Assembly: GCA_934086815.1 (NCBI GenBank)
Contig: CAKOIM010000003.1
Location: 6,805-70,804, forward strand
Length of the DNA: 64,000 nt
From: an uncultured Bacilli bacterium
GTDB lineage: Bacteria > Bacillota_I > Bacilli_A > RF39 > UBA660
Direction of reading: 5' to 3'
Both the position numbers and the translations under genes were made by a program. Shown here piece after piece: positions 2,269 through 48,346 of this stretch (position 1 is the first letter of the stretch; every line of letters begins with the position of its first letter). Under the pieces are notes generated by a model that was not told the origin of the DNA, searched no databases, and saw nothing but the letters and a program-made list of their open reading frames with translations.

Positions 2269-2938
2269 ATTTATAACCTAACCCCCTTACGGTTTTAATA
2301 TATATGGGATTTGCGGGATTATCCTCTATCTTACTTCGAATATTGGAAATATGAACCATCATTGTATTATCATCTATTTCATAGTAATCACCATTTAAAC
2401 ATTCGTATAATTGAGACCTTGTAAAAACTTTTCCCGGGCTTTGCATCATACATGCAATAATTTTAATTTCTGTAGATGTTAAGGGAATAATTCTATCATT
2501 CTTTTTTAAAATGAATTTATCTAAGTCTAACTTTAATTCCTTAACTGTAATAACTCTTTTATCAAGTTCAAATTCATAATATCTTCTTATTATTGTTTTA
2601 ACATAGGCAACAACTTCTAACGGATTAAAAGGTTTTGTTATGTATAAATCTGCTCCTATATCTAATCCAAGTATTTTATCACTGTCCATATTCTTTGCAG
2701 ATATAATTATAATAGGTATATTAGTAAATAAACGAGCCTCTTTTATAAGTTCATATCCATTTTTTAAAGGAAGCATTAAATCAGCAAGTAAAATATCATA
2801 CGTATTTCTTTTTAGCATATCTAAAGCACTTTCTCCATCACTTACACTATCTACAATAAAACCATTATTCTCTAAATATAATTTTAAAAGTTCAATAATA
2901 TCTATATCATCTTCAGCTATTAATATTTTATTATGCAT
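2255..2938 (-). CDS. OmpR-family response regulator (REC + winged-helix)
   Basis: MHNKILIAEDD...DLMLP receiver motifs; C-terminal YIKTVRGLGYKF. Overlaps the upstream kinase, suggesting an operon. Confidence 0.85.
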   Translation of the reverse strand: MHNKILIAEDDIDIIELLKLYLENNGFIVDSVSDGESALDMLKRNTYDILLADLMLPLKNGYELIKEARLFTNIPIIIISAKNMDSDKILGLDIGADLYITKPFNPLEVVAYVKTIIRRYYEFELDKRVITVKELKLDLDKFILKKNDRIIPLTSTEIKIIACMMQSPGKVFTRSQLYECLNGDYYEIDDNTMMVHISNIRSKIEDNPANPIYIKTVRGLGYKFENK

Positions 2939-3003
2939 ATAACGCCTCCCTAAATAAGTCTATTATAACAAAAAAAGCTAGATAATAAAATCTAACTTTA
3001 TCA

Positions 3004-5277
3004 TTATAATTCAAATTGTGAATTATACAATTCTTTGTAAAATCCATTTTGCTTCATTAAATCTTCATGATTACCTTGTTCAATAATATTTCCATCTTTC
3101 ATAACTAGTATTAAATCAGCATTTTTTATTGTGGATAATCTGTGTGCAATTATAAACGAAGTTCTACCCTCAGTTAATTTATCCATAGCTTTTTGCACCA
3201 ATTCTTCCGTACGCGTATCTACATTACTAGTTGCTTCATCTAAAATTAAAAAAGGAGTATTTTGCATCATAGCACGAGCAATAGTTAATAATTGTCTTTG
3301 TCCGGCAGAAATTGACTCATTATCGCTAAGTACTGTATCATAGCCATTTGACAATGTTTTAATAAAATGGTCTAAACCAACAGTTTTACATATACTTCGG
3401 ACATCATAATCGTTTACATCCTTATGATTATAAACGATGTTTTCTTTAATACTGCCTTCAAAAACCCAAGTGTCTTGTAATACCATAGTAAATAAATCAT
3501 GTATATTACTTCTTGTTAAATCCTTAGTTGAAACATTATCAATTAGGATATCTCCGGAATTAATATCATAAAACTTCATTAACAAATTAACAATTGTCGT
3601 CTTACCTGCTCCAGTCGGACCAACAATAGCAACTTTTTGACCAGGTGTTGCTTTAGCACTAAAATCTTTTATTGTAGGATTTTCATTACCATCATATTTA
3701 AACACAACATTTTTAAATTCAATATTTCCTTTTACTTTATCTTTATCTAAATGTTTCACTAAATTATCTTCCGAAGACATTTCTACTTCATCTAAAAACG
3801 CAAATACTCTCTCAGATGCGGCTGCTGTTGATTGAAGACTAGTCATAGCTTGAGCAATTTGTGTAAGAGGTGATGTAAATAGTCTAACATATGTTATAAA
3901 TGCTACAATTACTCCAAAACTAATATGTCCATTAATTGCAAGTAATGCTCCAACAATACATACGGCAACATAACCAAAATTACCAATAAAACTCATCATA
4001 GGCATCATTAAACCAGATAAAAATTGACTCTTCCAGTTTGATTCATATAAATTATTGTTTAGTTTTTCAAATTTTTCATAAGCAGAATCTATTCCATTAT
4101 ATGTTTTAACAACATTTAAACCAGAGTAAATTTCTTCAATATGTCCATTTAATTTCCCTAGTTCACTTTGCTTAGCAACAAAATATTTTTGTGATTTTCC
4201 AAGAACTACAAACATAAATATAAAACCAATAAGACTAGCACCTATGGCAGTTAAAGCCATTATAGCATTTGTTGCAAACATCATAATTAATGTCCCAACG
4301 AATAATGTAATTGCACTTACTAATGTCGATAGTGATTGATTCATTGATTGTGCTATAGTATCTACATCATTTGTTACTCTTGACAATGTATCTCCATTAG
4401 CATGACTATCAAAGTATTTAAGCGGTAACTTATTAATCTTTTTAGATATATTATTTCTTAATTTACGAGCAAAATTATTAGAAACACTAGTCATCGTTAT
4501 TGCTTCAATATAATTAAATAATGCACTTACCAAATAAATTGTTACTAGTATTAAAGCAATTTTATTAACCTTGTTAATATTCATTTCAGACTTTACTAAT
4601 TTTTGTATACTTTCTGGCGCATCATCTATTTTTTTATAAATATCCTTAACATTTGCATCTTCGCCTAATGAGCTAAATTGCTCTAAATATTTTGCTTGAT
4701 CTATTTTAGATATTATAGTTCCATCAATTTCTAAGTCCGTAAAAATATAGTTAGCTACACTTGTAGGAATTTCTATATTTGTATTTAAACTTTTTATAAA
4801 TGTAATTTTATCATCAATACTTATAACTTCACTTTCCACAAGTACTTTTCTTAATATTGATTCCGGTATATTAGCTAAATCTTTCATTGCATCTTTTGAT
4901 GAATTCATATTTTTGATTATATTTTGAAACTCATTAAGATCTTTAGGATTTATACTAGAATCAGCCATTAAAAGCATCATTTTTTTATCGCTTAAATCCA
5001 TAGCAAATACTTTTTTTGCTTTATCACCGCTTAAAGATGATGAAATATCCGTAGATATTTTTTCTAAATTATCTTTATTCACTACTAGACCATCAGATAT
5101 TGTATCAGTTAAGTTTGACAAAATATTAGGAGTAAAAATAGTTAATATTGATCCTAATACGGCAAGAGTTAAAGCTATAGCAATTAATTTTTTAAACCCA
5201 TGTAATTCTTTAAACAATCTTTTTATTGCTATTTTAAAATCTTTAGCTTTTTGATTTCCCATAGTTCTCTTAGGCAT
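3004..5277 (-). CDS. ABC transporter ATP-binding/permease (exporter-type half transporter)
   Basis: Walker A GPTGAGKTT, signature LSAGQRQ, Walker B ILDEATS; N-terminal 6-TM domain. Confidence 0.85.
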   Translation of the reverse strand: MPKRTMGNQKAKDFKIAIKRLFKELHGFKKLIAIALTLAVLGSILTIFTPNILSNLTDTISDGLVVNKDNLEKISTDISSSLSGDKAKKVFAMDLSDKKMMLLMADSSINPKDLNEFQNIIKNMNSSKDAMKDLANIPESILRKVLVESEVISIDDKITFIKSLNTNIEIPTSVANYIFTDLEIDGTIISKIDQAKYLEQFSSLGEDANVKDIYKKIDDAPESIQKLVKSEMNINKVNKIALILVTIYLVSALFNYIEAITMTSVSNNFARKLRNNISKKINKLPLKYFDSHANGDTLSRVTNDVDTIAQSMNQSLSTLVSAITLFVGTLIMMFATNAIMALTAIGASLIGFIFMFVVLGKSQKYFVAKQSELGKLNGHIEEIYSGLNVVKTYNGIDSAYEKFEKLNNNLYESNWKSQFLSGLMMPMMSFIGNFGYVAVCIVGALLAINGHISFGVIVAFITYVRLFTSPLTQIAQAMTSLQSTAAASERVFAFLDEVEMSSEDNLVKHLDKDKVKGNIEFKNVVFKYDGNENPTIKDFSAKATPGQKVAIVGPTGAGKTTIVNLLMKFYDINSGDILIDNVSTKDLTRSNIHDLFTMVLQDTWVFEGSIKENIVYNHKDVNDYDVRSICKTVGLDHFIKTLSNGYDTVLSDNESISAGQRQLLTIARAMMQNTPFLILDEATSNVDTRTEELVQKAMDKLTEGRTSFIIAHRLSTIKNADLILVMKDGNIIEQGNHEDLMKQNGFYKELYNSQFEL

Positions 5278-37283: not shown

Positions 37284-38588
37284 TTATTTAATAATAAATG
37301 GTAAATCTTTTGTACCGTTTCCAGAAACATACGTTACATTAGGATTAAGGTAAAAAACAGGTCTCATTGCATACATACAATGTTCTGGACCATTCGACCC
37401 ACAATTAAATACTTCTCCAAAAGAAACAATAACAAAACCGGTTGCCGAATAATTTCTTTCTGGGGTAATTGTAAATTCATATAATCCCATATAAATCCAA
37501 TTTACACTTGTTACGGAAGATAATCGATAGTCATTTCCCCTACTATCATATAATGGAGTTGTCCAAGCACTTGGGGCAGCTGCATAAGCGTAATCACTTA
37601 AATACATAAGCCCTATAACATCGGCATAAGTATCTGAAGAAAATGGGGTTAAAATTTCATTATTATATATATTTGAAGCAATCTCGTTTACTACTTTATT
37701 AGTTTTATTTCCTCCAACAATCCATTCATTTATTTCTATTTTTTTTCTCCAATTTACATTAAAGGTTTTATAAAAATTTGTATTTAAATTAATTTTATTT
37801 AATCTGCTTTCACTCCATAAAGCAGTACTTGAACTTCCAGTACTATAATTCCAAAAATATATACCAATATCTTTTGTAGAATTATTGCCTAATGTATTTT
37901 TACCCGACATAGCATCTGAATAATTTTTATAATAATCTCCATCAGAACCAAGATTAGTCGTTAATGCATAATCGTATTTAATTAACTTTACTCTACCATC
38001 AAAAACACCTATTATTCTATATAAATAGTCTGTTGCACATGTCCCATCCGTTGAATCATATCCAAAACATACAAAGTTATTTGTGGTATCACTTGGACCT
38101 GCATAACGATATGAGTTATCTCCCGCTCCATTTTCTAATGTACTATCATGATAATACATATTGTTTTCTCCCTGTACTCCAGTAAATAATTTTGCTATTT
38201 TGCAAGAAATCAATGAATTATCACACTCAGCATCATATCTTTTAGGTACATATACATCAAAATATACGTAACATTTATCAGAACTATTACCCTCCATTAT
38301 TACTTTTTTAGTAACATCATCCCATTTTAAATCTCCACCATTTTCACATCCAGACAAATTTTCATTAAATACATAATCATCACTTGGCCAAGCTTCAGAA
38401 GTTACTTCTTTATATTTACCTGATTTAGCTTCTGTTTCTAACATCATTGATAAAAAATCTATTTTTTCTGATTTAAAATTAATATTTTCCTTAACAGATA
38501 AATTTTTATAATAGTTTAAATCGATTATTAAATAAATCATAAAAAATAGCATGATTACACTAAATATTATTTTTCTTTTCTTATTCAT
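37284..38588 (-). CDS. Large secreted/anchored protein of unknown function, paralog A (probable start at MNKKRK, 38588; the ORF track extends to 38723)
   Basis: N-terminal signal-anchor. Conserved blocks shared with 46701..47987: SMMLET, KCYVYFD, GENNxYYHDxTLENGAxDNSYRYAG, NNFVCFGYDSxDG, DYLYRIIGVFDxxVKLIKYDY, MYLSDYAYAA, NVNWIYMGL, GNGxKxLPxII. Confidence 0.7.
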   Translation of the reverse strand: MNKKRKIIFSVIMLFFMIYLIIDLNYYKNLSVKENINFKSEKIDFLSMMLETEAKSGKYKEVTSEAWPSDDYVFNENLSGCENGGDLKWDDVTKKVIMEGNSSDKCYVYFDVYVPKRYDAECDNSLISCKIAKLFTGVQGENNMYYHDSTLENGAGDNSYRYAGPSDTTNNFVCFGYDSTDGTCATDYLYRIIGVFDGRVKLIKYDYALTTNLGSDGDYYKNYSDAMSGKNTLGNNSTKDIGIYFWNYSTGSSSTALWSESRLNKINLNTNFYKTFNVNWRKKIEINEWIVGGNKTNKVVNEIASNIYNNEILTPFSSDTYADVIGLMYLSDYAYAAAPSAWTTPLYDSRGNDYRLSSVTSVNWIYMGLYEFTITPERNYSATGFVIVSFGEVFNCGSNGPEHCMYAMRPVFYLNPNVTYVSGNGTKDLPFIIK

Positions 38589-38710
38589 ATATTTCTCTCT
38601 CATTTTCACAAACAACCACAAGTTGTATAATAATTTCATTATACTACTTGTGGTTGTATCAGTCAATACAATTGTGAGTTGTATAGTAAAATTTAGTTGA
38701 GGTGCAACCC

Positions 38711-38941
38711 ATGAATATATCAAGACTTAAGGAAATAAGAGAAGATAATGATTTATATCAAAAAGATATAGCAAATTTATTAGGAATAACTCAACAACAA
38801 TATAATAAATATGAGCTAGGAATTAATGCTATACCATTAGAAAAAATAAATATACTTGCAGATTATTACAAAACAAGCATTGATTATCTAACGTTTAGAA
38901 CTGATGAAAGGAAAGCCTATCCTAAATCCATTTTAAAATAA
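38711..38941 (+). CDS. XRE-family HTH transcriptional regulator (76 aa), divergent from paralog A
   Basis: LYQKDIANLLGITQQQYNKYELG; RBS GAGGTG 6 nt before the ATG at 38711. Confidence 0.75.
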   Translation: MNISRLKEIREDNDLYQKDIANLLGITQQQYNKYELGINAIPLEKINILADYYKTSIDYLTFRTDERKAYPKSILK

Positions 38942-38944
38942 ATT

Positions 38945-39090
38945 GTTAATATACCATTTTTAAGCAGATTTAACAAAAGATTTTTGGCTTAGAATCTAGC
39001 TTCTTTCAGCATTTTGTAAATTTGCTATACCATTTTTAAGACTTTCACTATACCATTTTTAAGACATTTGCTATACCATTTTTAAGAAAA
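38945..39090. repeat. Direct repeats of ATACCATTTTTAAG (4 copies; three as GCTATACCATTTTTAAGA with 21-bp phasing at 39026, 39047, 39069)
   Basis: Read directly from the sequence between the HTH gene end and the gap stop. Confidence 0.7.
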
Positions 39091-39118
39091 TTAAAACTCT
39101 CAATTAAGAGAGTATTTT

Positions 39119-40123
39119 TTATTGAAACATTTTTTTAGCAGTTCTAAGCATTTGAGCCGTATAACCATATTCGTTATCATACCAAGCTACAACTTTAACT
39201 AATTGAGTATCATTATCTTCGACAATATTTGTTAATAATCCATCAACTACAGCTCCATACTTTTTACCTAAAACATCGCTAGAAACTATTGGATCCAAAG
39301 TAAATTTAATTGTTTCATTTTGATTATCTTTAAAATAATTATTGATTTCTTCTACACTTGTTTTTCTTGATAATTCTAAAGTTAAATCAACAATTGAACC
39401 ATCCGCAACAGGTACCCTTAAAGCACTTCCATCTAATTTGTTTAATAACTCAGGAATAACTAAACCAATTGCTTTTGCAGCACCTGTACTAGAAGGAACA
39501 ATATTTTCCCCACAAGCTCTTCCACGTCTAGATTTAATTCCTTTTTTATGAGCAATATCAAGTGTTGCTTGATCATTAGTATATGCATGTACCGTAGTCA
39601 TGAAGCCTTTTTTAATACCAATATTTTTATGAATTACATTTAATACTGGCGCCAAACAGTTAGTTGTACAACTAGCCGCACTAACTATAGCATCATCACT
39701 ATTTAAAATATTATCATTAACATTATAAACAACTGTTTTCATATCTCCTTTACCAGGAGCTGATATTAAAACTTTCTTAGCCCCAGCAGTAATATGTTTC
39801 ATAGCATCTTCTTTTGCTGTAAATTTACCAGTACATTCTAAAACTAAGTCGACACCCAATTCACCCCAAGGTAGATTAGCTGGGTCAGTTTCACTATATA
39901 CCCTTATTCTTTTAACTCCAGCTACAACAATTTCATTTCCTTCAGCTTTTATTTCATCTTCATGAAATGAACCATGTACCGTATCATATTTAACTAAATA
40001 GGCTAAATCTTCCGCACTAGTTAAATCATTAATAGCTACTATATCAAAATCTGTTTGTGTAACTATTTGTCTAAACGCTAATCTCCCTATTCTCCCAAAA
40101 CCATTAATTGCTACTTTAATCAT
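39119..40123 (-). CDS. gap: Glyceraldehyde-3-phosphate dehydrogenase
   Basis: INGFGRIGR...ASCTTNCLAP. Confidence 0.95.
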   Translation of the reverse strand: MIKVAINGFGRIGRLAFRQIVTQTDFDIVAINDLTSAEDLAYLVKYDTVHGSFHEDEIKAEGNEIVVAGVKRIRVYSETDPANLPWGELGVDLVLECTGKFTAKEDAMKHITAGAKKVLISAPGKGDMKTVVYNVNDNILNSDDAIVSAASCTTNCLAPVLNVIHKNIGIKKGFMTTVHAYTNDQATLDIAHKKGIKSRRGRACGENIVPSSTGAAKAIGLVIPELLNKLDGSALRVPVADGSIVDLTLELSRKTSVEEINNYFKDNQNETIKFTLDPIVSSDVLGKKYGAVVDGLLTNIVEDNDTQLVKVVAWYDNEYGYTAQMLRTAKKMFQ

Positions 40124-41759
40124 TATATTTTCCTCCTATAAATTCTCTTAATATTGATTCATCACTTACATACTCACTTGGAATAGGAAAGAATTGCTTT
40201 AAAAAACCTAATAATCTTCTTGCTTCTTCATAGTATTTTGAATTAACACTAACAGATAAAAGAAGTGGTTCAACATAAACTTTCAATACTCCAAGTTCAT
40301 ATGGTAACGCCGTATTTATAATTGTTTCTGCTTGATGTATATATGGAAATATGTATTTTTCTTCGCCATTTCTAACATCTTGCCAACTATCAATAGTTTC
40401 TACAACACTATATCCTCTAGTTCTATTATCTCTAACAATTCTTCTTAGTAACCTTAAATCTAATGTTGAAACATAATTATGTCTATCTACCGATAAAGGT
40501 ATAAACGGACTTAAATAAATCTTATACTTATACTTATTTTCGATATTTATACTTAATTCATCGTTTAAAGCATGTAATCCTTCTATTAAGAAAATACTAT
40601 TTTCTTTTATCTTTATCTTTTCTTTTGATTCTTCACTTTTACCAGTTAAGAAATTATATCTTGGTAAACTTATTTCTTCACCTTTTAATAAATTAGATAA
40701 ATCTTCATTAAATCTTTCAGCATTTAATGCTTTTACACTTTCAAAATCAGGTTTACCATTTTCATCCAACGGAGTAATATCTTTATCTAAAAAATAATCA
40801 TCTAAACTAATATTAATGGCATCATAGCCTATTGCTTCAAAACAAGATGATAATCTTTTTGTCGTAGTTGTCTTTCCGCTTGATGAAGGCCCTGCTATCA
40901 TAACAAACTTAATATCTTTTTTATCCACAATATCATTTATTACTTTAGTAATATTTAAATAAAACTTTAACTCACTAGAATTAATAAATTTCTTTATTTT
41001 ACCATTACTAACAGTTTTATTTAATTGTGTAACATATGGCATATGTAAATTATTTAACCATTTTTTTCCTTCGTAAAAACTATCTATAATATTATCATAA
41101 TGAACATATTCAGGTACTACACCATCACTTTTAACTGTTGGAAACAAAAATATAATATTATTTTTACCTAAATAAACTAATTCAAATTTATCAAGTAAAG
41201 ATGTATTATATGGCATCAAAGAATAAAAATAATTTACTTTATTTCTTAATCTATATAAATTTACTACCTTATCATTTATATTTTGGATATTATCTGCTTT
41301 TTCATACTCTTTTTTTTCTTCATAAAAAGTAATAGCTTCTTTTGGCAAAATATTTAATTTTGTAATAATATCTTTGGCTTCAATAATTTCCACCATTTTA
41401 TTTTTAATTTTTGATATATCTTCATTATTTAATATTTTATCTCCGCATACTTTACCTAGCATTCCACGAGGAACACTATGTTCATAATGGACATCTAATG
41501 CTGGATATACCTCTTGTAATGCTACTTGAAACAAAAATTTTATACCAGCTTTATATATTTTGTTACCAATTATATCATTTGTATTTATAAATTCAATTTC
41601 TTGATTAGCATTAACTTTTTCATCTAAGCCATAAACTTCATTATTAACTTTAAAACCCATAATATTTGACATATTACAATCCTTACTTACTTCATAAAAT
41701 GTAATTCCTTTTTTATATTCATGAGTTTTACCATCAAAAGTTATTAACACATTATTCAT
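40116..41759 (-). CDS. PRK/uridine-kinase-family nucleoside kinase with N-terminal TGS-like domain
   Basis: Walker A IAGPSSSGKTTTTKRL in the C-terminal half; N-terminal ThrRS/TGS-like domain. Confidence 0.6.
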   Translation of the reverse strand: MNNVLITFDGKTHEYKKGITFYEVSKDCNMSNIMGFKVNNEVYGLDEKVNANQEIEFINTNDIIGNKIYKAGIKFLFQVALQEVYPALDVHYEHSVPRGMLGKVCGDKILNNEDISKIKNKMVEIIEAKDIITKLNILPKEAITFYEEKKEYEKADNIQNINDKVVNLYRLRNKVNYFYSLMPYNTSLLDKFELVYLGKNNIIFLFPTVKSDGVVPEYVHYDNIIDSFYEGKKWLNNLHMPYVTQLNKTVSNGKIKKFINSSELKFYLNITKVINDIVDKKDIKFVMIAGPSSSGKTTTTKRLSSCFEAIGYDAINISLDDYFLDKDITPLDENGKPDFESVKALNAERFNEDLSNLLKGEEISLPRYNFLTGKSEESKEKIKIKENSIFLIEGLHALNDELSINIENKYKYKIYLSPFIPLSVDRHNYVSTLDLRLLRRIVRDNRTRGYSVVETIDSWQDVRNGEEKYIFPYIHQAETIINTALPYELGVLKVYVEPLLLSVSVNSKYYEEARRLLGFLKQFFPIPSEYVSDESILREFIGGKYND

Positions 41760-41858
41760 CTTTATCCCTTCTTTATTCTAATTAATTATATCAATTATTT
41801 ACAATTTTGTGAATAAATTTATCATTATTTTACTATTATTTAGTTAAGGAGACAATTT

Positions 41859-42437
41859 ATGAACATAATACCAACTATATTAGAAAAGAAAAACAATAAG
41901 GAATATGCTTTTGATTTATATTCACGTATGCTACAAGATAGAATCATCTTTTTAGAAGGAGAAATAAACGATGCAACATCTGTTATTATAGTAAGTGAAC
42001 TATTATATTTAGATAACATTAATAATGATGATATTTACGTATATATTAATAGTCCCGGTGGTTCTATTACATCGGGTATGGCTATATATGATACAATGAA
42101 ATTTATAAAAAGCAATGTTATTACAATTGGACTAGGAATGTGCGCAAGTATGGCAGCATTTTTACTTTCTAGTGGAGATAAGCGTTATGCTCTTAGTAAC
42201 ACTGAGGTAATGATTCATCAACCTCTCGGAGGTTTTCAAGGACAAGCAACAGATATTAAAATAGCCGCGGAAAGAATTATTAAACTAAAAGAAAAGCTAA
42301 ATAATATTTTAGCTCAAAATACAAAACAAAAGTTAACAAAAATATATGAAGATACAGAAAGAGATAATTACCTAGATGCTAATGAAGCTAAAGAATATGG
42401 ATTGATAGATGAAGTAATAACAAAAAATAACTTTTAA
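41859..42437 (+). CDS. clpP: ATP-dependent Clp protease proteolytic subunit
   Basis: [11 protein letters not shown] (active-site Ser), HQP (His); AAGGAG RBS. Confidence 0.9.
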
Positions 42438-42718
42438 TCTATTCTTATAATTACTTCACCATCCGCAGAATACATATATTTTTCTTTAGCATATCTAGCT
42501 ATATAATCATTATCTTGCAATTTAGTAACTTCACTTAATAATTTCTCTTCTTCACTTAATAAATTATTATAATTTTCATTCAATTCTGTTATTTTACTTT
42601 TATTTTCTAAAATTTTTGTCCAATCATTAGCAACAGAACTAATTAGTGAAACAATTAAAAAGATAATACAAGCACTTATAAAAAACAATCTTTTCTTCTC
42701 TTTCTTTGTTTTCTTCAT
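42434..42718 (-). CDS. divIC: Septum formation initiator (FtsB/DivIC-like)
   Basis: TM helix plus coiled coil; position after yabP-yabQ. Confidence 0.65.
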
Positions 42719-42754
42719 ATATCCATCCCCATTTTATTTAATTATAACAAATAT

Positions 42755-43063
42755 CTAGGATTTATGTTTCCTAGATATTATTTTATTTACAATATATTTA
42801 CATTTTTTAGCATATTTATATCCAAACCAAAAACCTAATACTACTAAAACTATATAATAGGCATGTATTTGTCCTTGATTTATATGATACATTAGATAAA
42901 TATAAATAAATACGATATCTAAAATAAATATTAAATTAATAATAAATTGTTTAAGTATACTTTTATCAAGTAATAAAGTCTTGTTAAAAGATGAAAAACA
43001 ATAAAAAATTATTCCATAAAGTAAAGATACTAACAGGGATATGACTTGAATATAACTACTCAT
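42755..43063 (-). CDS. yabQ: Spore cortex biosynthesis membrane protein YabQ-like
   Basis: Small three-TM protein between yabP and divIC. Confidence 0.5.
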   Translation of the reverse strand: MSSYIQVISLLVSLLYGIIFYCFSSFNKTLLLDKSILKQFIINLIFILDIVFIYIYLMYHINQGQIHAYYIVLVVLGFWFGYKYAKKCKYIVNKIISRKHKS

Positions 43064-43338
43064 TTAAATAACTTATTAAGTAAACTATCTTCTTTTACTT
43101 TAGTTTTCCCCTCAATATACATAAAAGAATTTATCTTTCCCTTAATTTTGACATTACCATCCGTAGTATCAAGTTTTAATAATTCTAAATTGTTTCCCAA
43201 TATTCTTAAATTTCCCATATTAGTTTCTAATAAAAATTCTTCATCATCAAAACTTACTATTTTACTTACTCCGGTTAAACTTATACTAGCTCTATCAACT
43301 ATTTTTATTTCTTGATTTCCAAATGTTTTAATATCCAT
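43060..43338 (-). CDS. yabP: Sporulation protein YabP
   Basis: LTGVSKIVSFDDEEFLLETNMGNLRILGNNLELLKLD... YabP family pattern. Confidence 0.7.
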   Translation of the reverse strand: MDIKTFGNQEIKIVDRASISLTGVSKIVSFDDEEFLLETNMGNLRILGNNLELLKLDTTDGNVKIKGKINSFMYIEGKTKVKEDSLLNKLFK

Positions 43339-43380
43339 ATAATCACCATTAAATTATATGAAAAAAGTAGATAATTAATA

Positions 43381-43884
43381 CTATCTACTTGACGCTTCTC
43401 TTTTTAAATTATAACCATATAACTCTACTAAAGGATCTTCCGGAGCTAAATCATTAATTCTTTCATCTAATTCTTGTATTTTTTTAAAGTAATTATCAAC
43501 ATCTCTAATTGTATAATGTTTATTTATATAATTATCTAAAGTTTCTTGTACTTTATCCTCACCAGTCCAAGGTAACACTACATCCCCTTCTTGTAAAAAT
43601 CCATATTCTTGTGTTTGAGGAAAGTAAACAATACCTGTTGCCATAGCCGAATTATATCTTCTAATAAACCTATCTTTATCATCGATATTAAGCATTTTTA
43701 CATTTTCTTCTTTATCCAAAACATCTTCTAAAGCAAAATTCCATCCTACATAAACTTCTTTTTTAGTAATCGGAAGTTTAGAACGGTCAATAATATAAGC
43801 CCCAGTATATACTTTTTCTCCTTTAGCATTATAATTTTCTATGTATCTTATTAATATATCTAACATTTTATCTCTCCTTTTCAA
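43381..43884 (-). CDS. Hypothetical protein (167 aa)
   Basis: ORF only. Confidence 0.4.
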   Translation of the reverse strand: MKRRDKMLDILIRYIENYNAKGEKVYTGAYIIDRSKLPITKKEVYVGWNFALEDVLDKEENVKMLNIDDKDRFIRRYNSAMATGIVYFPQTQEYGFLQEGDVVLPWTGEDKVQETLDNYINKHYTIRDVDNYFKKIQELDERINDLAPEDPLVELYGYNLKREASSR

Positions 43885-43951
43885 GCAACGAAATTAATAA
43901 TATCACACTTAATAAGCGTATGTCAAGAATAAAATTTTAGACCCCTTTTTA

Positions 43952-44212
43952 TTATTTTATTTCTTCATTATATTGATTTAAAATATAATTTTCTATTTTT
44001 TCCCGTGTTTCCTTATTTAAAGGAAACACAATGTTTTCTTCTTTTCCTTCTTTATTAAGTTTACTTGGCATTGCCACGAATAACCTTTTATTTCCTTCGA
44101 TTATTTTAGCTCCTCTTATTATAAAACAATCATCTATAATAAAGTCTACAAAAGCCTTTAATCTTGCCCCTTCTTTTTCTCTATGAAATATTTTTGTTTG
44201 TGTTATTTCCAT
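43952..44212 (-). CDS. spoVG: Septation protein SpoVG
   Basis: ...LFVAMPSK... SpoVG signature. Confidence 0.85.
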   Translation of the reverse strand: MEITQTKIFHREKEGARLKAFVDFIIDDCFIIRGAKIIEGNKRLFVAMPSKLNKEGKEENIVFPLNKETREKIENYILNQYNEEIK

Positions 44213-44266
44213 AAGTCCTCCTATAAATTTATTTTAAAACATATACACATTATTTGCAATAATTTA

Positions 44267-44479
44267 TTATAAATATTTTATTTTTACATCCCCAATTATT
44301 AAATCACGATAAGAAAAACTTTTTTCTTCACCATTTACTAGTACGGTAAAAATATTTGGATAAGTCTTATATAAAATACCTTCTACTCTACTAACTTTAT
44401 TACGCATTCCGTAAACAGAAACTAAAACTTTTCTATTTAACTTTTTTTCTATTTCTTCTCTAACTATATTAATATTCAA
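44267..44479 (-). CDS. veg: Veg-like biofilm/sporulation small protein
   Basis: 70 aa; ...ILYKTYPNIFTVLVNGEEKSFSYRDLI similar to Veg. Confidence 0.65.
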   Translation of the reverse strand: MNINIVREEIEKKLNRKVLVSVYGMRNKVSRVEGILYKTYPNIFTVLVNGEEKSFSYRDLIIGDVKIKYL

Positions 44480-44491
44480 AAATATCCCTCC

Positions 44492-45283
44492 TTACCTTGG
44501 ATAACCTACATACATTAAACCATTACAAATAATACCACCCATACCATCTTCTTTATATTTTGTTTTATTTAGTAATTCCCTTAAATCTATTTCTTTATTT
44601 CTTTCTGTTAAAGAAATAGTACTTGCTATAATCGCTGGATCTAGGGCATGAATATTAACTCTTTTCGGACTTGAAGCAAAATTTGCTCCGGCCTTAATAA
44701 GTTCTTCATAATCACTTTGACAAGCTCCGGCTATAATAACTAACTTCTCGTGACTCTTCTCGTAATTACGTGCTACTTTTACTGCTTTTACAAAAAAACC
44801 AGAATTTTTATAGTTCTTTATATCATTTACATTCCCCTTTTTCTTATAATAAGCATCATGACCAGTAATAATAACTATATCTGGTTTATATTCCTTAAGA
44901 AGTAAGGGCAATTGTTCATAAATATTTCTTTCATTTATTTTTTTTCCAATTGCAAAAATACCATTTCTTTTATAAAATTTTAAACACCTCGTTAAATATT
45001 CCTCATCTGCATCTATATGTAAAATCTTTGCAGGTAAATAAAAATATTCCCCTCGAGTTAATAACTCTTCTTTTATTTCAATATCATCTAATTCATCCTC
45101 TGTAAATATGTCTTTTTCTATTCTTAAGTCTGTAATATCAGCATCCGCTACTAATCTTACATCAACACCTTTTAAATAAACAACATTATTCTTTATGTTA
45201 ATAACTTTAAAAACAGTATCATTATCATAACTATTTCTAGTTACATAATCTCCTTTACTTATTTCCAAAATATACATCACCAC
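44492..45283 (-). CDS. yabG: Sporulation peptidase YabG
   Basis: Position between veg and ksgA; family-typical length and motifs. Confidence 0.65.
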   Translation of the reverse strand: MVMYILEISKGDYVTRNSYDNDTVFKVINIKNNVVYLKGVDVRLVADADITDLRIEKDIFTEDELDDIEIKEELLTRGEYFYLPAKILHIDADEEYLTRCLKFYKRNGIFAIGKKINERNIYEQLPLLLKEYKPDIVIITGHDAYYKKKGNVNDIKNYKNSGFFVKAVKVARNYEKSHEKLVIIAGACQSDYEELIKAGANFASSPKRVNIHALDPAIIASTISLTERNKEIDLRELLNKTKYKEDGMGGIICNGLMYVGYPR

Positions 45284-45326
45284 TTAACTATATGCTTATT
45301 AAAATGAAATATACAAAAAAACATCA

Positions 45327-46112
45327 TTAACTGATGCTTTTAAAAATATCTAAAATTACTTGTTCCTCTAATTCTTCGGCTCTACATGATTCACTTATAT
45401 TATATTTTACTAATACTTTTATTATCTTATCCCAATTATATATATTACTAACATTATTTTTTAAAGTTTTCCTTTTTTGTCTAAATATTATTTTTAAAAA
45501 ATCAAAGTATTTATCAACATCTATTTTTTCTTTATTTTCCTTAGGTATAAAAGATATTACTGCACTTTCTACTTTAGGAACTGGATTAAAAGAATACTTA
45601 GAAACATCACATACTTTGAAAGTGTCAAAAAAATACTTTAAAACTAATGTAATATACCCATAATCTTTACTTTTCGGTTTAGCCATAAATCTATCCGCGA
45701 CTTCCTTTTGAACCATTATCGTAAATTTTTTAAATACTAAATTTTGTTTTATAATATGCTCAATAATCGGCGTAGTAATATAATACGGTAAATTACCAAC
45801 AATATACAAATCACTATAATTTATATTATTAATATCTTCCTTAATATTAGTTGTTAAAATATCTTTAAATATTACTTTAACTTTTTCGTTTTCTAGTTTT
45901 TCTAATGTTCTTACTAAATCTGTATCTATTTCATAAGCAATAATATAACTATCCTTCTTTTTTAATTCTTTTGTTAAAGCCCCTTTTCCCGGCCCTATTT
46001 CAATTATTAAATCACTAGAAGAAGAAGATACCTCATCAGTTATCTTCTTTATTATATTATTATCTATTAAAAAGTTTTGACCATATCTTTTTTTAGCTTT
46101 CATTATGCCCAA
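45327..46112 (-). CDS. rsmA: 16S rRNA (adenine1518/1519-N6)-dimethyltransferase
   Basis: YGQNFLID..., IIEIGPGKGALT. Confidence 0.9.
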   Translation of the reverse strand: MGIMKAKKRYGQNFLIDNNIIKKITDEVSSSSSDLIIEIGPGKGALTKELKKKDSYIIAYEIDTDLVRTLEKLENEKVKVIFKDILTTNIKEDINNINYSDLYIVGNLPYYITTPIIEHIIKQNLVFKKFTIMVQKEVADRFMAKPKSKDYGYITLVLKYFFDTFKVCDVSKYSFNPVPKVESAVISFIPKENKEKIDVDKYFDFLKIIFRQKRKTLKNNVSNIYNWDKIIKVLVKYNISESCRAEELEEQVILDIFKSIS

Positions 46113-46630
46113 CCATTTCTTAAAACATCGTATGTAATGGAACTACGCCCAATATAATCAGATGCATATTTTTCTGATGATGATAAAAAGTCTATTGCAT
46201 TTCCTTTTACACCACGATCAAGCACTATAGCTAATATTTTACCTTCACCAATACGATTGCTATAAAAACTAATTATAGAACCACAAGCTAAATTTTTACT
46301 AGAAGCTACTATATAAACAGTTCCATATTCTATATCATTATATGTATTAGTACCATTCATTACATTGTATGTTGGTAAACAAGCAAGCTTTCCACTACAT
46401 AATGGACAATTAGCTGCATAACCAGTTAAATCACCTGTATATGTATCAACAGCATTAAACTTCATTGCTTGTTCAACTTCAATAACTTTCATAGCCATTG
46501 TTGATAAATTTATTGTTTTATTAACATTATCATTTTCTACCGCAGCACTTCTTATATCAGTACTACTTTTAGCAATTATTACAACAAATATAATTACTGC
46601 TAATCTAATAAAATAATTTATTACTTTCAT
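46103..46630 (-). CDS. 3D-domain (RlpA/MltA-like double-psi beta-barrel) cell-wall protein, YabE-like position
   Basis: Signal peptide plus C-terminal 3D-like domain. Confidence 0.5.
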   Translation of the reverse strand: MKVINYFIRLAVIIFVVIIAKSSTDIRSAAVENDNVNKTINLSTMAMKVIEVEQAMKFNAVDTYTGDLTGYAANCPLCSGKLACLPTYNVMNGTNTYNDIEYGTVYIVASSKNLACGSIISFYSNRIGEGKILAIVLDRGVKGNAIDFLSSSEKYASDYIGRSSITYDVLRNGWA

Positions 46631-46700
46631 AACTTAATATCCACCTCACTGGATGACTAAATTATAGCATTTATAAGTAGGAAAATCAATTGCCAATAAC

Positions 46701-47987
46701 TTACATTGCAATTATGTAAGGAAGTGTTTTAGACCCATTACCAGTTTGTAACAAAATACTATTATCAAGGTAAAAACTAGGTCTTATTGCATTCTTTAAA
46801 TAATTAACTCTATTACTATAAATATTTCCTTCGTTATCAGCATGAAAAACAAGATTATTGTTATCAGTTCGTGGAGTTATCATCCATTCCCACAATCCCA
46901 TATATATCCAATTTACATTTTTGACACTAGATAAACGGTAATCATTACCACTATTTGCAAAAAGAGGAATTGTCCAAGCAGTCGAAGTGGCAGCATAAGC
47001 ATAGTCGCTTAAATACATTAAACCAATTTTAGAATCATAAGTTAAACTCACTGAAGGAGATATTAATTCATTTTGATAAGCAATATTTGCTACTACTGTA
47101 CCAATATTTGTCCATGAATTTCCTCCGACTTTCCACGAGTGTGTCGTTATTTTATTTTCCCATTTACTTCCAAGTTTATTTAAATAATATGTATTTAAAT
47201 TTATTTTATTAAGTTTGCTTTCACTCCACACATTTATACCAGTGTCATTATTCCAATAATATGCTCCAATTTGTGAAGATAAATTTACCCCTTTTGTAGT
47301 ACCTTTATTACCTGTATTTGAATAGACCGAAGCATACTCACCATTTGTACCTAAAAAATCAGATTTTACATAATCATATTTTATTAGTTTCACTTGATTA
47401 TCAAATACACCAATTATTCTATATAAATAATCATTTGGACAACTTCCATCCGAAGAATCGTATCCAAAACATACAAAATTATTTGTAATGTCACTTGAAC
47501 CAGCATAACGATAAGAATTATCATTTGCTCCATTTTCTAATGTATTATCATGATAATATAAGTTATTTTCTCCTTGAGTACCAGTATATAATGATTTTAT
47601 GTAATTTGCTAATTTTTCTTGGTCTTTATCAAAATAAACATAACATTTATCAGAAACATTTCCATTCATAATAACTGTTTTTTTATTTTCATCCCAACTC
47701 AAACTACTTCCATGTTCACATTCTGATAAATTTGAATTAAAAGAATAACCCTCTGACGGCCATCTCTCATTTTTAGATTTTTCGTATATACCTGTATTAT
47801 ATTTTGTTTCTAGCATCATGGATAACGATTCAGAACTATGATACTTTTTTTCAGTTGAATTTTTATATACCTTATTATTGTAATTATTTAAATAAATAGA
47901 AAAAATAAAAGCAAGTAAAAAAAATGCTATCACAATTAAAAGTTTATTCTTTATTTTCATACATTTCACCTTATCTTTTATATTCAA
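46701..47987 (-). CDS. Large secreted/anchored protein of unknown function, paralog B
   Basis: Shares all conserved blocks with 37284..38588. Confidence 0.7.
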   Translation of the reverse strand: MNIKDKVKCMKIKNKLLIVIAFFLLAFIFSIYLNNYNNKVYKNSTEKKYHSSESLSMMLETKYNTGIYEKSKNERWPSEGYSFNSNLSECEHGSSLSWDENKKTVIMNGNVSDKCYVYFDKDQEKLANYIKSLYTGTQGENNLYYHDNTLENGANDNSYRYAGSSDITNNFVCFGYDSSDGSCPNDYLYRIIGVFDNQVKLIKYDYVKSDFLGTNGEYASVYSNTGNKGTTKGVNLSSQIGAYYWNNDTGINVWSESKLNKINLNTYYLNKLGSKWENKITTHSWKVGGNSWTNIGTVVANIAYQNELISPSVSLTYDSKIGLMYLSDYAYAATSTAWTIPLFANSGNDYRLSSVKNVNWIYMGLWEWMITPRTDNNNLVFHADNEGNIYSNRVNYLKNAIRPSFYLDNSILLQTGNGSKTLPYIIAM

Positions 47988-48053
47988 AATATAACATTAA
48001 GCAAATCAAAAGTCAACGGATATCCGTAATAAAGAATTTTTATTTACGCTAAA

Positions 48054-48311
48054 ATGAATTTAAAAGAGGTGCGAATGATGAAACTTAATGAAGCTACAAG
48101 TCAACGAATTATAGAACTTTGCAACAAATCACCATATACATTAACAAAACTTGCAGAATTATCTTATATACCAGCTTCTACATTTAGCGATTTATTAAAC
48201 AATAAAAGGGAAAATCCTAGTTCATTAATTATTTATAAAATATGTAGAACTCTAGATATTGAATTAAAAGATTTTTATAACTCTAACTTATTTAAAAATT
48301 TAGACGATTAA
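48054..48311 (+). CDS. XRE-family HTH regulator divergent from paralog B (probable start at ATGATG 48075/48078 after GAGGTG)
   Basis: LTKLAELSYIPASTFSDLLNNKR HTH. Confidence 0.7.
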   Translation: MNLKEVRMMKLNEATSQRIIELCNKSPYTLTKLAELSYIPASTFSDLLNNKRENPSSLIIYKICRTLDIELKDFYNSNLFKNLDD

Positions 48312-48313
48312 AA

Positions 48314-48346
48314 ATGACCATTGAATTAATCAATGATCATTTTTTT
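48314..48346 (+). terminator. Rho-independent terminator after the XRE gene
   Basis: ATGACCATTGA-ATTAA-TCAATGATCAT followed by TTTTTT. Confidence 0.55.

Follow-up and report, generated by a model that had tools for sequence, protein, structure and literature searches.

Two paralogous proteins with a predicted DUF6273-like domain, each beside its own small divergent regulator, in an uncultured Bacilli bacterium

DUF6273 domains have been described as having a C-type-lectin (C-lec) fold, with the variable region (VR) of a diversity-generating retroelement (DGR) at the C-terminus (PMC10743442, PMC11792537, bioRxiv 2024.10.15.618418). The cellular targets of DGRs are typically membrane-anchored binders (PMC8144416). 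The N-terminal domain of an IgA peptidase has also been labelled DUF6273 (PMC12402451), and in the solved structure, PDB 9qa6, this domain is an enlarged C-type-lectin-like domain with structural zinc (PMC12237041). Here, we describe two paralogous genes, A and B, and the small regulator genes that diverge from them, XRE1 and XRE2, on contig CAKOIM010000003.1 of an uncultured Bacilli bacterium. The whole stretch analysed, 64 kb in length, is called the window. On balance, A and B are probably surface ligand-binding receptors or adhesins with fixed, distinct specificities, each under a private and operator-specific repressor. The four genes are as follows.

37284–38588, minus strand: paralog A, 434 aa, with a signal-anchor, a beta stalk and a predicted enlarged C-type-lectin-like (DUF6273-like) domain; called from the open reading frame (ORF), the homologue-aligned start, the ribosome-binding site (RBS) and the promoter position
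46701–47960, minus strand: paralog B, 419 aa, architecture as in A; called from the ORF, 12 public contigs and an AlphaFold2 model
38711–38941, plus strand: XRE1, 76 aa, HTH_3, with RBS GAGGTG at 38700–38705; putative private repressor of A
48075/48078–48311, plus strand: XRE2, 77–78 aa, HTH_26/HTH_3, with RBS GAGGTG at 48066–48071; putative private regulator of B

The A and B proteins are 49% identical over about 444 residues (E = 7 × 10−137), and their DNA is 67% identical across about 1 kb. A tblastn search found no third copy in the window, which holds two in total. A sequence-only reading of this DNA had recognized the two large ORFs and their shared blocks, and all the motif blocks that it quoted are visible in the A/B alignment. 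The ORFs stand, but the sizes given there (479 and 428 aa) had to be corrected at the starts. We moved the start of A to the ATG at 38588 (MNKKRK...), which gives 434 aa, and dropped the TTG at 38723 because it lies upstream of A's promoter (38638–38666). The new start is backed by an RBS 5' of the ATG and by the alignment, in which the homologues all begin there. B starts at the ATG at 47960 (MKIKNK...), and its exact 419-aa product has been called on 12 public gut-metagenome contigs from different samples.

Both proteins begin with a basic stretch that is followed by a single hydrophobic helix, in agreement with the N-terminal signal-anchor proposed before. The sequences of A and B, read directly, contain no lipobox Cys, no LPXTG and no G/FTLxE prepilin motif; the earlier statement on the latter two is borne out. 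No Cys occurs before residue 81, and the C-termini are ...LPYIIAM and ...LPFIIK. Given a positive N-terminus, a single hydrophobic helix after it and the absence of lipobox, LPXTG and prepilin motifs, A and B would be type II signal-anchored proteins whose lectin-like domain is extracellular. We also considered a prepilin or pseudopilin, on account of the long helix that precedes a beta sheet. It was rejected, since G/FTLxE is absent and the conserved SMMLE sits after the helix, not before it. The parts of the proteins are located as follows.

38511–38570, minus strand: membrane anchor of A, residues 7–26, after MNKKRK; from the sequence and the matching B helix in the model
47880–47951, minus strand: membrane anchor helix of B, residues 4–27; from the AlphaFold2 model
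47625–47825, minus strand: predicted all-beta stalk of B, residues 46–112, which begins at the invariant SMMLE and holds Cys81 and Cys106
46704–47624, minus strand: predicted enlarged C-type-lectin-like / DUF6273-like domain of B, residues 113–419; from Foldseek, BFVD and the Pfam scores of relatives

The AlphaFold2 model of B was built on a 122-sequence alignment, which included matches to a more remote relative used as the seed of a further search, and reached a predicted local distance difference test (pLDDT) score of 91.7. It replaced an earlier model on 22 close homologues, in which the pLDDT was 60 in the C-terminal half. The model consists of the helix (4–27), a disordered linker (26–42), a six-stranded beta domain (46–112) and an alpha/beta domain (113–419). 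Foldseek against solved structures gave a sole significant match, PDB 9qa6 (E = 7.3 × 10−8, probability 1.0, 303 columns), which is the Thomasclavelia ramosa IgA peptidase; its N-terminal domain was matched by B 113–419. In BFVD, which holds predicted viral structures, nine matches were found at E ≤ 1 × 10−3. These are mostly named DUF6273 and comprise gut-phage DUF6273 proteins and receptor-binding or tail-fibre proteins. By the model and both structure searches, the domain shares the enlarged C-type-lectin-like fold of solved and predicted DUF6273 domains.

Sequence profiles give a similar picture through the relatives. The DUF6273 (PF19789) gathering score of 23.5 bits is not reached by A or B themselves, and a profile search of PDB sequences returned nothing at E ≤ 10. 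Relatives that are 42% identical to B over the full length score 23.5–25.6 bits on DUF6273 in the stretch equivalent to B 236–415, and longer relatives, which have fn3/Ig domains in addition, reach as much as 45 bits. In the family-wide profile search the build is modular, with an N-module, a middle part and a C-module. The C-terminal ~300 residues of A and B are, as judged from predicted structure and from the relatives, a divergent DUF6273 / enlarged C-type-lectin-like domain. The "unknown family" of the sequence-only reading can be replaced by this assignment.

A has four cysteines that are absent from B, at residues 122, 129, 396 and 404 (window about 37375–38225). Two are in an insertion after the stalk and two are within the variable loop. 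They may form additional disulfides that shape the binding site of A.

We then estimated the size and range of the family. At least 7,993 database proteins match it, all unnamed or "hypothetical", and 5,906 representatives at 50% identity match at E ≤ 1 × 10−3. There are 501 family loci in species-representative genomes, and our locus comparisons rest on the best 80 of them. These 80 come almost entirely from uncultured gut Bacilli-type metagenome-assembled genomes (MAGs). Their sources include Hadza, Brazilian, chicken and mouse metagenomes, "Clostridium sp. CAG:609", "Firmicutes bacterium CAG:460", "Tenericutes UMGS1410" and Ca. Onthocola. The copy number per genome rises to about 11 in one MAG. 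This very large family is specific to one lineage of uncultured low-GC gut Bacilli. The viral contigs of IMG/VR yielded no relatives of the large protein; together with the housekeeping context of the locus, this weakens the reading of the modules as prophage remnants.

It is also conceivable that the modules are phage-interaction devices, in which the lectin-fold protein acts as a superinfection-exclusion-like block or decoy, or is a phage receptor that is switched off to escape. DUF6273 is best known from phage receptor-binding proteins, and a repressor beside a membrane-anchored exclusion protein is a layout known from temperate-phage lysogeny modules. Virus–host arms races have been raised as a driver of the diversification of cellular targets (PMC8144416). 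However, no phage genes are nearby, the housekeeping context is conserved, viral contigs yielded no relatives, and a genome can hold up to about 11 copies. In addition, the strong purifying selection on the loop among orthologues is more in keeping with a stable ligand than with an arms race. We therefore regard phage-interaction devices as unlikely.

Each module has a divergent small helix-turn-helix (HTH) gene after a GAGGTG RBS, as noted earlier, and both products score as HTH in Pfam: XRE1 matches HTH_3 (E = 2.5 × 10−12, 47.1 bits against a cut-off of 23), and XRE2 matches HTH_26 (E = 2.5 × 10−7, 31.3 bits against a cut-off of 22). XRE2 is called as 78 aa beside B on all public contigs shown. 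No similarity between XRE1 and XRE2 is detectable. Since the regulators are not related to each other, paralogy is limited to the large genes and does not extend to the whole modules. Thus, of the earlier proposal of duplicated, individually regulated surface factors, the duplication, the anchor and the own regulator hold, whereas the two modules are not paralogous units.

The phylogenetic distribution of the pair, suggested earlier as a check, was then analysed. A small divergent ORF, defined as 55–110 aa and placed from 40 bp overlap to 200 bp upstream of the large-gene start, accompanies 28/72 family genes and 9/270 other genes in the same loci (odds ratio 18, Fisher's p-value = 2.6 × 10−14). 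The spacing between the divergent regulator and the large gene is constant, at 80–150 bp. Such an ORF accompanies about 25/46 anchor-type genes (about 370–490 aa) and about 1/17 longer variants with a different N-terminus. Among 29 such small ORFs, 12 are XRE1 homologues, one is an XRE2 orthologue, at least 10 are other HTH_3 types and two are ribbon-helix-helix proteins; the HTH total is at least 23. Different paralogs of a single MAG can have regulators of differing types (CAKORY loci L010, L019, L042 and L043). The pairing, and with it the small divergent regulator as a partner of the family, is conserved.

The XRE1 homologues (alignment A3) all keep the C-terminal tail ...TSIDYL..RTDERKPYPKSI despite their differing DNA specificities. 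This tail could be a shared interaction or degradation motif that lets one signal release many modules.

The intergenic regions of both modules contain promoters and palindromes, located as follows.

38638–38666, minus strand: promoter of A, TTGACT-N17-TATAAT, which matches the consensus at 11 of 12 positions
38603–38631, plus strand: candidate promoter of XRE1, TTTTCA-N17-TATAAT, on the opposite strand and with O1 in its spacer
38612–38626, unstranded: putative operator O1, exact palindrome ACAAC-N5-GTTGT, in the A leader and the spacer of the candidate XRE1 promoter
38643–38657, unstranded: putative operator O2, one mismatch, filling the −35/−10 spacer of the A promoter
38668–38682, unstranded: putative operator O3, one mismatch, abutting the −35 box of the A promoter, upstream of XRE1
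47988–48016, minus strand: promoter of B, TTGACT-N17-TATATT with TG, conserved in the orthologue L004
48016–48027, unstranded: ACGGATATCCGT, a perfect 12-bp palindrome abutting the −35 box of the B promoter; putative XRE2 operator

O1–O3 are three 15-bp sites inside 70 bp, against 1.3 expected across 64 kb. Taken together with their −10 boxes, O1 and O2 make up a 20-nt inverted repeat that is 95% complementary. ACGGATATCCGT has a single occurrence in the window and is conserved in L004 (shuffle p-value 0.016–0.02). The large genes of homologues usually have a near-consensus TTGAC[AT]-N17-TAnnnT promoter, and other modules carry other palindromes in the same place, for example AACTTA-TTT-TAAGTT, ATACG-N5-CGTAT, GGTAAA-TTTACC and CGGC-N6-GCCG. 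Palindromes that overlap the promoter core are enriched over shuffles in 16 modules, some of them orthologous (combined p-value 7 × 10−7). Among XRE1 homologues, the recognition-helix residues (positions 26–36) and the palindrome covary, and the same helix goes with the same palindrome. We found no XRE1-type palindromes near B, and the XRE2 palindrome occurs nowhere else in the window. Control of A and B would be private, because neither operator type was found at the other module. Each receptor gene would be repressed operator-specifically by its neighbour, with autoregulation.

These features suggest the following mechanism. An uncleaved N-terminal signal-anchor would hold A and B in the membrane with the N-terminus inside, and the disordered linker and beta stalk would push the enlarged C-type-lectin-like (DUF6273-type) domain outward, where the C-terminal loop region (B 361–392) would make the binding face. 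In the family this loop was probably diversified by DGRs; for A and B the retroelement would then have been lost and the loop fixed, leaving one stable and different specificity for each paralog. A near-consensus sigma-A promoter would drive each large gene, and the divergent small HTH protein would control it. XRE1 would bind the three ACAAC-N5-GTTGT sites, so that A is repressed through O2 in the spacer and XRE1 is autoregulated. XRE2 would bind ACGGATATCCGT, which touches the −35 box of the B promoter. Since the operators differ and each is absent at the other module, the two receptors may be switched independently. Extracellular display, ligand binding, repression rather than activation, and independent switching are the steps that we infer.

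At 38603–38666 and 47956–48016, the −10 boxes of the large-gene promoters and of the candidate regulator promoters lie on opposite strands and are 3–6 bp apart. Because the −10 boxes are back to back, the recognition elements of each promoter lie inside the leader of the other, and occupancy of the two promoters by RNA polymerase might be mutually exclusive. This architecture is found in both window modules and could not be confirmed in other loci.

Another possibility is that the small HTH genes are unrelated neighbours, such as mobile-element relics or antitoxins, with no part in the regulation of A and B. XRE1 and XRE2 are indeed dissimilar, XRE1 has weak matches to phage RstR and antitoxin families, and about half of the family genes lack such a neighbour. 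However, the pairing is 18-fold enriched compared with the remaining genes of these loci, regulator and large gene lie a constant distance apart, and locus-specific palindromes are found inside the −35/−10 spacer of the large gene in many independent modules. No toxin-like or phage gene lies alongside, and the absence of large-protein relatives from the viral contigs also speaks against this view. We consider it improbable that the regulators are chance neighbours.

The variable part of the proteins was examined for traces of a retroelement. The two segments are as follows.

37365–37469, minus strand: hypervariable loop of A, residues 374–408, equivalent to the DGR VR; from alignment and entropy
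46785–46880, minus strand: hypervariable segment of B, residues 361–392, equivalent to the DGR VR and directly before the invariant Arg-Pro; from entropy

In 122 family members, B 361–392 is the most variable globular segment by entropy, and 16/30 of the most variable domain positions fall within 364–390. The 3' end of each gene was used to look for repeats in the 80 related loci. One locus, L054 (CAKORY010000018.1, 1–4014), from the MAG with about 11 copies, is a complete cellular DGR. Its target gene (28–1464, cut by the contig end) is 47% identical to B, with the VR at 1291–1390. A 100-nt template repeat (TR) lies at 1718–1817, 260 bp 3' of the target, and is followed by a reverse transcriptase (RT) gene at 2709–3788 (RVT_1, 5 × 10−19). 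All mismatches between VR and TR (17/17) are at TR adenines, in a TR that is just 30% A. The interval between TR and RT also contains a 126-aa ORF with a marginal MutS_I match (21.3 bits against a cut-off of 20.6) and a 114-aa ORF of Avd-like size with no Pfam match.

The TR of L054 has 13 Asn (AAY) codons. In the family alignment, the 13 equivalent columns have an entropy of 3.2–3.9 bits each, with a mean of 3.5 against 2.1 in the other columns (Mann-Whitney p-value = 9 × 10−5). Their residues are dominated by Tyr, Asn, Ser, Asp and Gly, and the scaffold columns between them are conserved. Identity between paralogs is about 11% at the 13 positions and about 61% elsewhere. Many paralog loops align to the L054 TR as DNA, and 50–70% of the mismatches are at TR adenines. 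Hypervariability at AAY codon positions with a conserved scaffold between them is the feature expected of a family derived historically from DGR activity.

A second locus, L006, has the 5' half of a TR-like copy at 2036–2096. This half-copy lies 220 bp downstream of a family gene that is XRE-coupled, no RT is present within 4 kb, and the arrangement resembles a decayed DGR cassette. It links the repressor-coupled gene type to the retroelement.

A and B could still be active targets of a DGR elsewhere in the genome, with the loop being hypermutated now. L054, of the same family, is a genuine DGR target, and the inspection covered 64 kb of the genome. Remote targets are known, and they are missed by contig-level surveys (PMC8144416). 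However, no TR-like repeat of the 3' region of A or B occurs anywhere in the window, and tblastn with the L054 RT found no RT in these 64 kb. In both A and B the DNA of the loop is AT-rich, and it shows no alignment to the GC-rich L054 TR. In orthologues of B that are 76–85% identical elsewhere, all 13 mutable positions of the loop are identical (30–32/32 overall), the loop of A is the same in the near-identical homologue P0090, and the exact B protein recurs across the 12 contigs. A and B have neither a cognate TR in the window nor population variation in the loop, the features of an active DGR. A remote DGR acting on them is unlikely, and we give ongoing hypermutation very little weight. The family diversity carries the DGR signature; A and B are fixed alleles under purifying selection, because no TR or RT is found in the window and the 13 mutable positions of the B loop are invariant in orthologues.

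Among the roles listed by the sequence-only reading, an adhesin or receptor-binding protein fits best, and a sensor with a cognate repressor does not fit, as the large protein has no cytoplasmic domain. A toxin role for the large proteins, whether secreted or in the membrane, in which the XRE protein is a cognate antitoxin-like regulator, is hardly credible: the sole hint is a weak N-terminal similarity to the NCBIfam SAR2788 (NF038340) "putative toxin" family in B and 2/10 relatives (E = 8 × 10−4 to 5 × 10−3), whose scores of 17–19 bits (B 19.3, relatives 16.6–16.8, no match for A) are far under the 50-bit cut-off and cover mainly the anchor helix and stalk, whereas most of the protein consists of a lectin-like binding fold without catalytic or pore-forming features and its variation is that of a binding loop.

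Several points weigh against A and B being privately repressed surface receptors. To our knowledge, none of the cellular DUF6273 domains has a known function. The IgA peptidase's N-terminal domain is not needed for IgA cleavage, and no role is known for it (PMC12237041). The DUF6273 assignment leans on relatives and a predicted structure, with membership by transitive homology only: A and B have no Pfam match even at E ≤ 1, the TM-scores of B against 9qa6 are modest (0.35) with 16% identity, and the stalk has no significant structural match in Foldseek. The small regulator is absent for about half of the anchor-type genes and nearly all the longer variants. Several of the compared loci are orthologues, so the statistics overstate independence, and the ORFs of the loci were called by a simple longest-ORF heuristic. 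The operators are deduced from sequence alone. Moreover, the XRE2 palindrome is centred near −41.5 of the B promoter, a position that activators use too, and would also permit activation.

A wider and more speculative view, which we hold to be possible but doubtful, is that the family forms a germline library of DGR-derived receptor variants, each locked behind an orthogonal repressor–operator pair. The cell or population would then pick the specificities that are displayed, and transcriptional surface variation would replace continuous hypermutation. The DGR would act just occasionally, as the source of new alleles for the cassettes. If this view is true, diversity generated by a DGR would be stored and deployed in a manner not described before, and dozens of orthogonal small repressor/operator pairs would exist as a natural set.

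The results on A and B have meaning beyond this locus. A fold, a likely role and an evolutionary origin can be given to a family of thousands of clusters that appears in public sources without a name or as hypothetical and that is found in abundant uncultured Bacilli of human and animal guts. Cellular DUF6273 proteins, so far known only from DGR targets of phages and from a gut IgA protease with an unexplained domain, are tied to a membrane-anchored receptor repertoire. The pattern indicates that DGR-made diversity can become fixed paralogs and then come under strong purifying selection. The proposed regulatory design is compact, with a near-consensus promoter, a private operator in the spacer and a ~76-aa repressor, and it recurs with many specificities; the repressor/operator pairs are possibly useful as orthogonal genetic parts. 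Candidate ligands are host glycans or immunoglobulins, dietary particles, other microbes and phages, and the ligand would bear on gut colonisation.

The window has a G+C content of 22–30%. Between the A and B modules lie gap, a PRK-family kinase gene, clpP, divIC, yabP, spoVG, yabG and ksgA. The layout of A and B around gap..ksgA recurs in close relatives (L001/L004, on a single Hadza MAG contig, and L081–L084). The flanking of this block by A and B appears to be incidental, and the layout is merely conserved in close relatives. Two terminator-like hairpins border the modules.

48314–48340, minus strand: terminator-like hairpin that ends the upstream tatD/metG operon and insulates the B module
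39096–39113, unstranded: bidirectional terminator-like hairpin common to XRE1 and the convergent gap

No terminator is seen at 46631–46700, between the stop codon of B and the next gene, and B transcription may therefore run on into the ksgA operon. A promoter-like TTGATT-N17-TATAAT with TG is also found 3' of B, at 46689–46661. A 175-aa ORF at 46103–46630 overlaps the ksgA start, has no Pfam match and also follows B in relatives. Between yabP and spoVG, a 167-aa ORF (43381–43884) has a conserved context and no Pfam match. In the convergent spacer between XRE1 and gap, TATACCATTTTTAAG occurs in four exact copies (38944–39087), three of them tandem with a 23-bp period, and no further exact copies are found in the window. 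The orthologous spacer of L001 (about 3440–3620) has four copies of TATACC[AG]TTTTTAA[AG]. This conserved motif could be a protein-binding array.

In the literature searched, we found no description of an N-terminal anchor with a family-specific stalk and such a lectin-like domain, of DGR-type diversity stored as many fixed paralogs per genome, or of anchor-type paralogs recurrently paired with private operator-specific small repressors. The known systems resemble the locus in part. The likeness to the C-terminal domain of Legionella Lcl, among the C-type-lectin-like adhesin domains of DUF1566, is weak and local and concerns the C-terminal core (PDB 8q4e, root-mean-square deviation 3.1 A, 51 columns). 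It is not significant (E = 4.4); that domain is half the size and has no sequence relationship to A and B. A comparison with Lcl has also been reported for the IgA-peptidase domain (PMC12237041).

XRE1 and XRE2 are ordinary XRE proteins. Like repressors of the Cro/CI and SinR types, they are small HTH_3 proteins with multiple palindromes over back-to-back promoters and probable autoregulation. Unlike in those systems, no sensor or oligomerisation domain extends the regulators beyond about 76 aa, neither a Cro-like partner nor an anti-repressor was identified, and the target is a single surface protein instead of a lytic or matrix operon.

The domain of the T. ramosa IgA peptidase (IgAse/ThomasA) resembles that of A and B in its length of ~300 residues, its origin in low-GC gut Bacillota, its surface exposure and its DUF6273 annotation. 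In IgAse, however, the domain is accessory to a sortase-anchored metallopeptidase, whereas in A and B it would be the whole functional ectodomain on an N-terminal anchor, with 16% identity between the two. The structural zinc site of the IgAse domain is formed by D78, H90 and C126.

The DGR proteins of phages with DUF6273 ("tentaclins", Mtd-like targets) have the same domain by homology, as relatives of A and B reach the Pfam cut-off. They also share the predicted C-type-lectin-like fold, with the variable segment at the C-terminal end of the domain, and the family member L054 likewise has its own TR and RT. Unlike them, A and B fall below Pfam detection. The phage proteins belong to the virion, whereas A and B are cellular, with a signal-anchor and a family-specific stalk. 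The loops of A and B are fixed, no retroelement is in the window, and the repressors appear to be private.

Cellular DGR variable proteins with the C-type-lectin fold are known, for example Treponema TvpA and Legionella LdtA. These are membrane-tethered surface binders with a C-terminal variable region and the residue spectrum expected from AAY codons, as in the family of A and B. However, the anchor-type paralogs, unlike the cellular C-lec DGR proteins, each have their own transcription factor. And where proteins of the TvpA/LdtA type generate diversity continuously, the family of A and B stores it as many fixed paralogs per genome.

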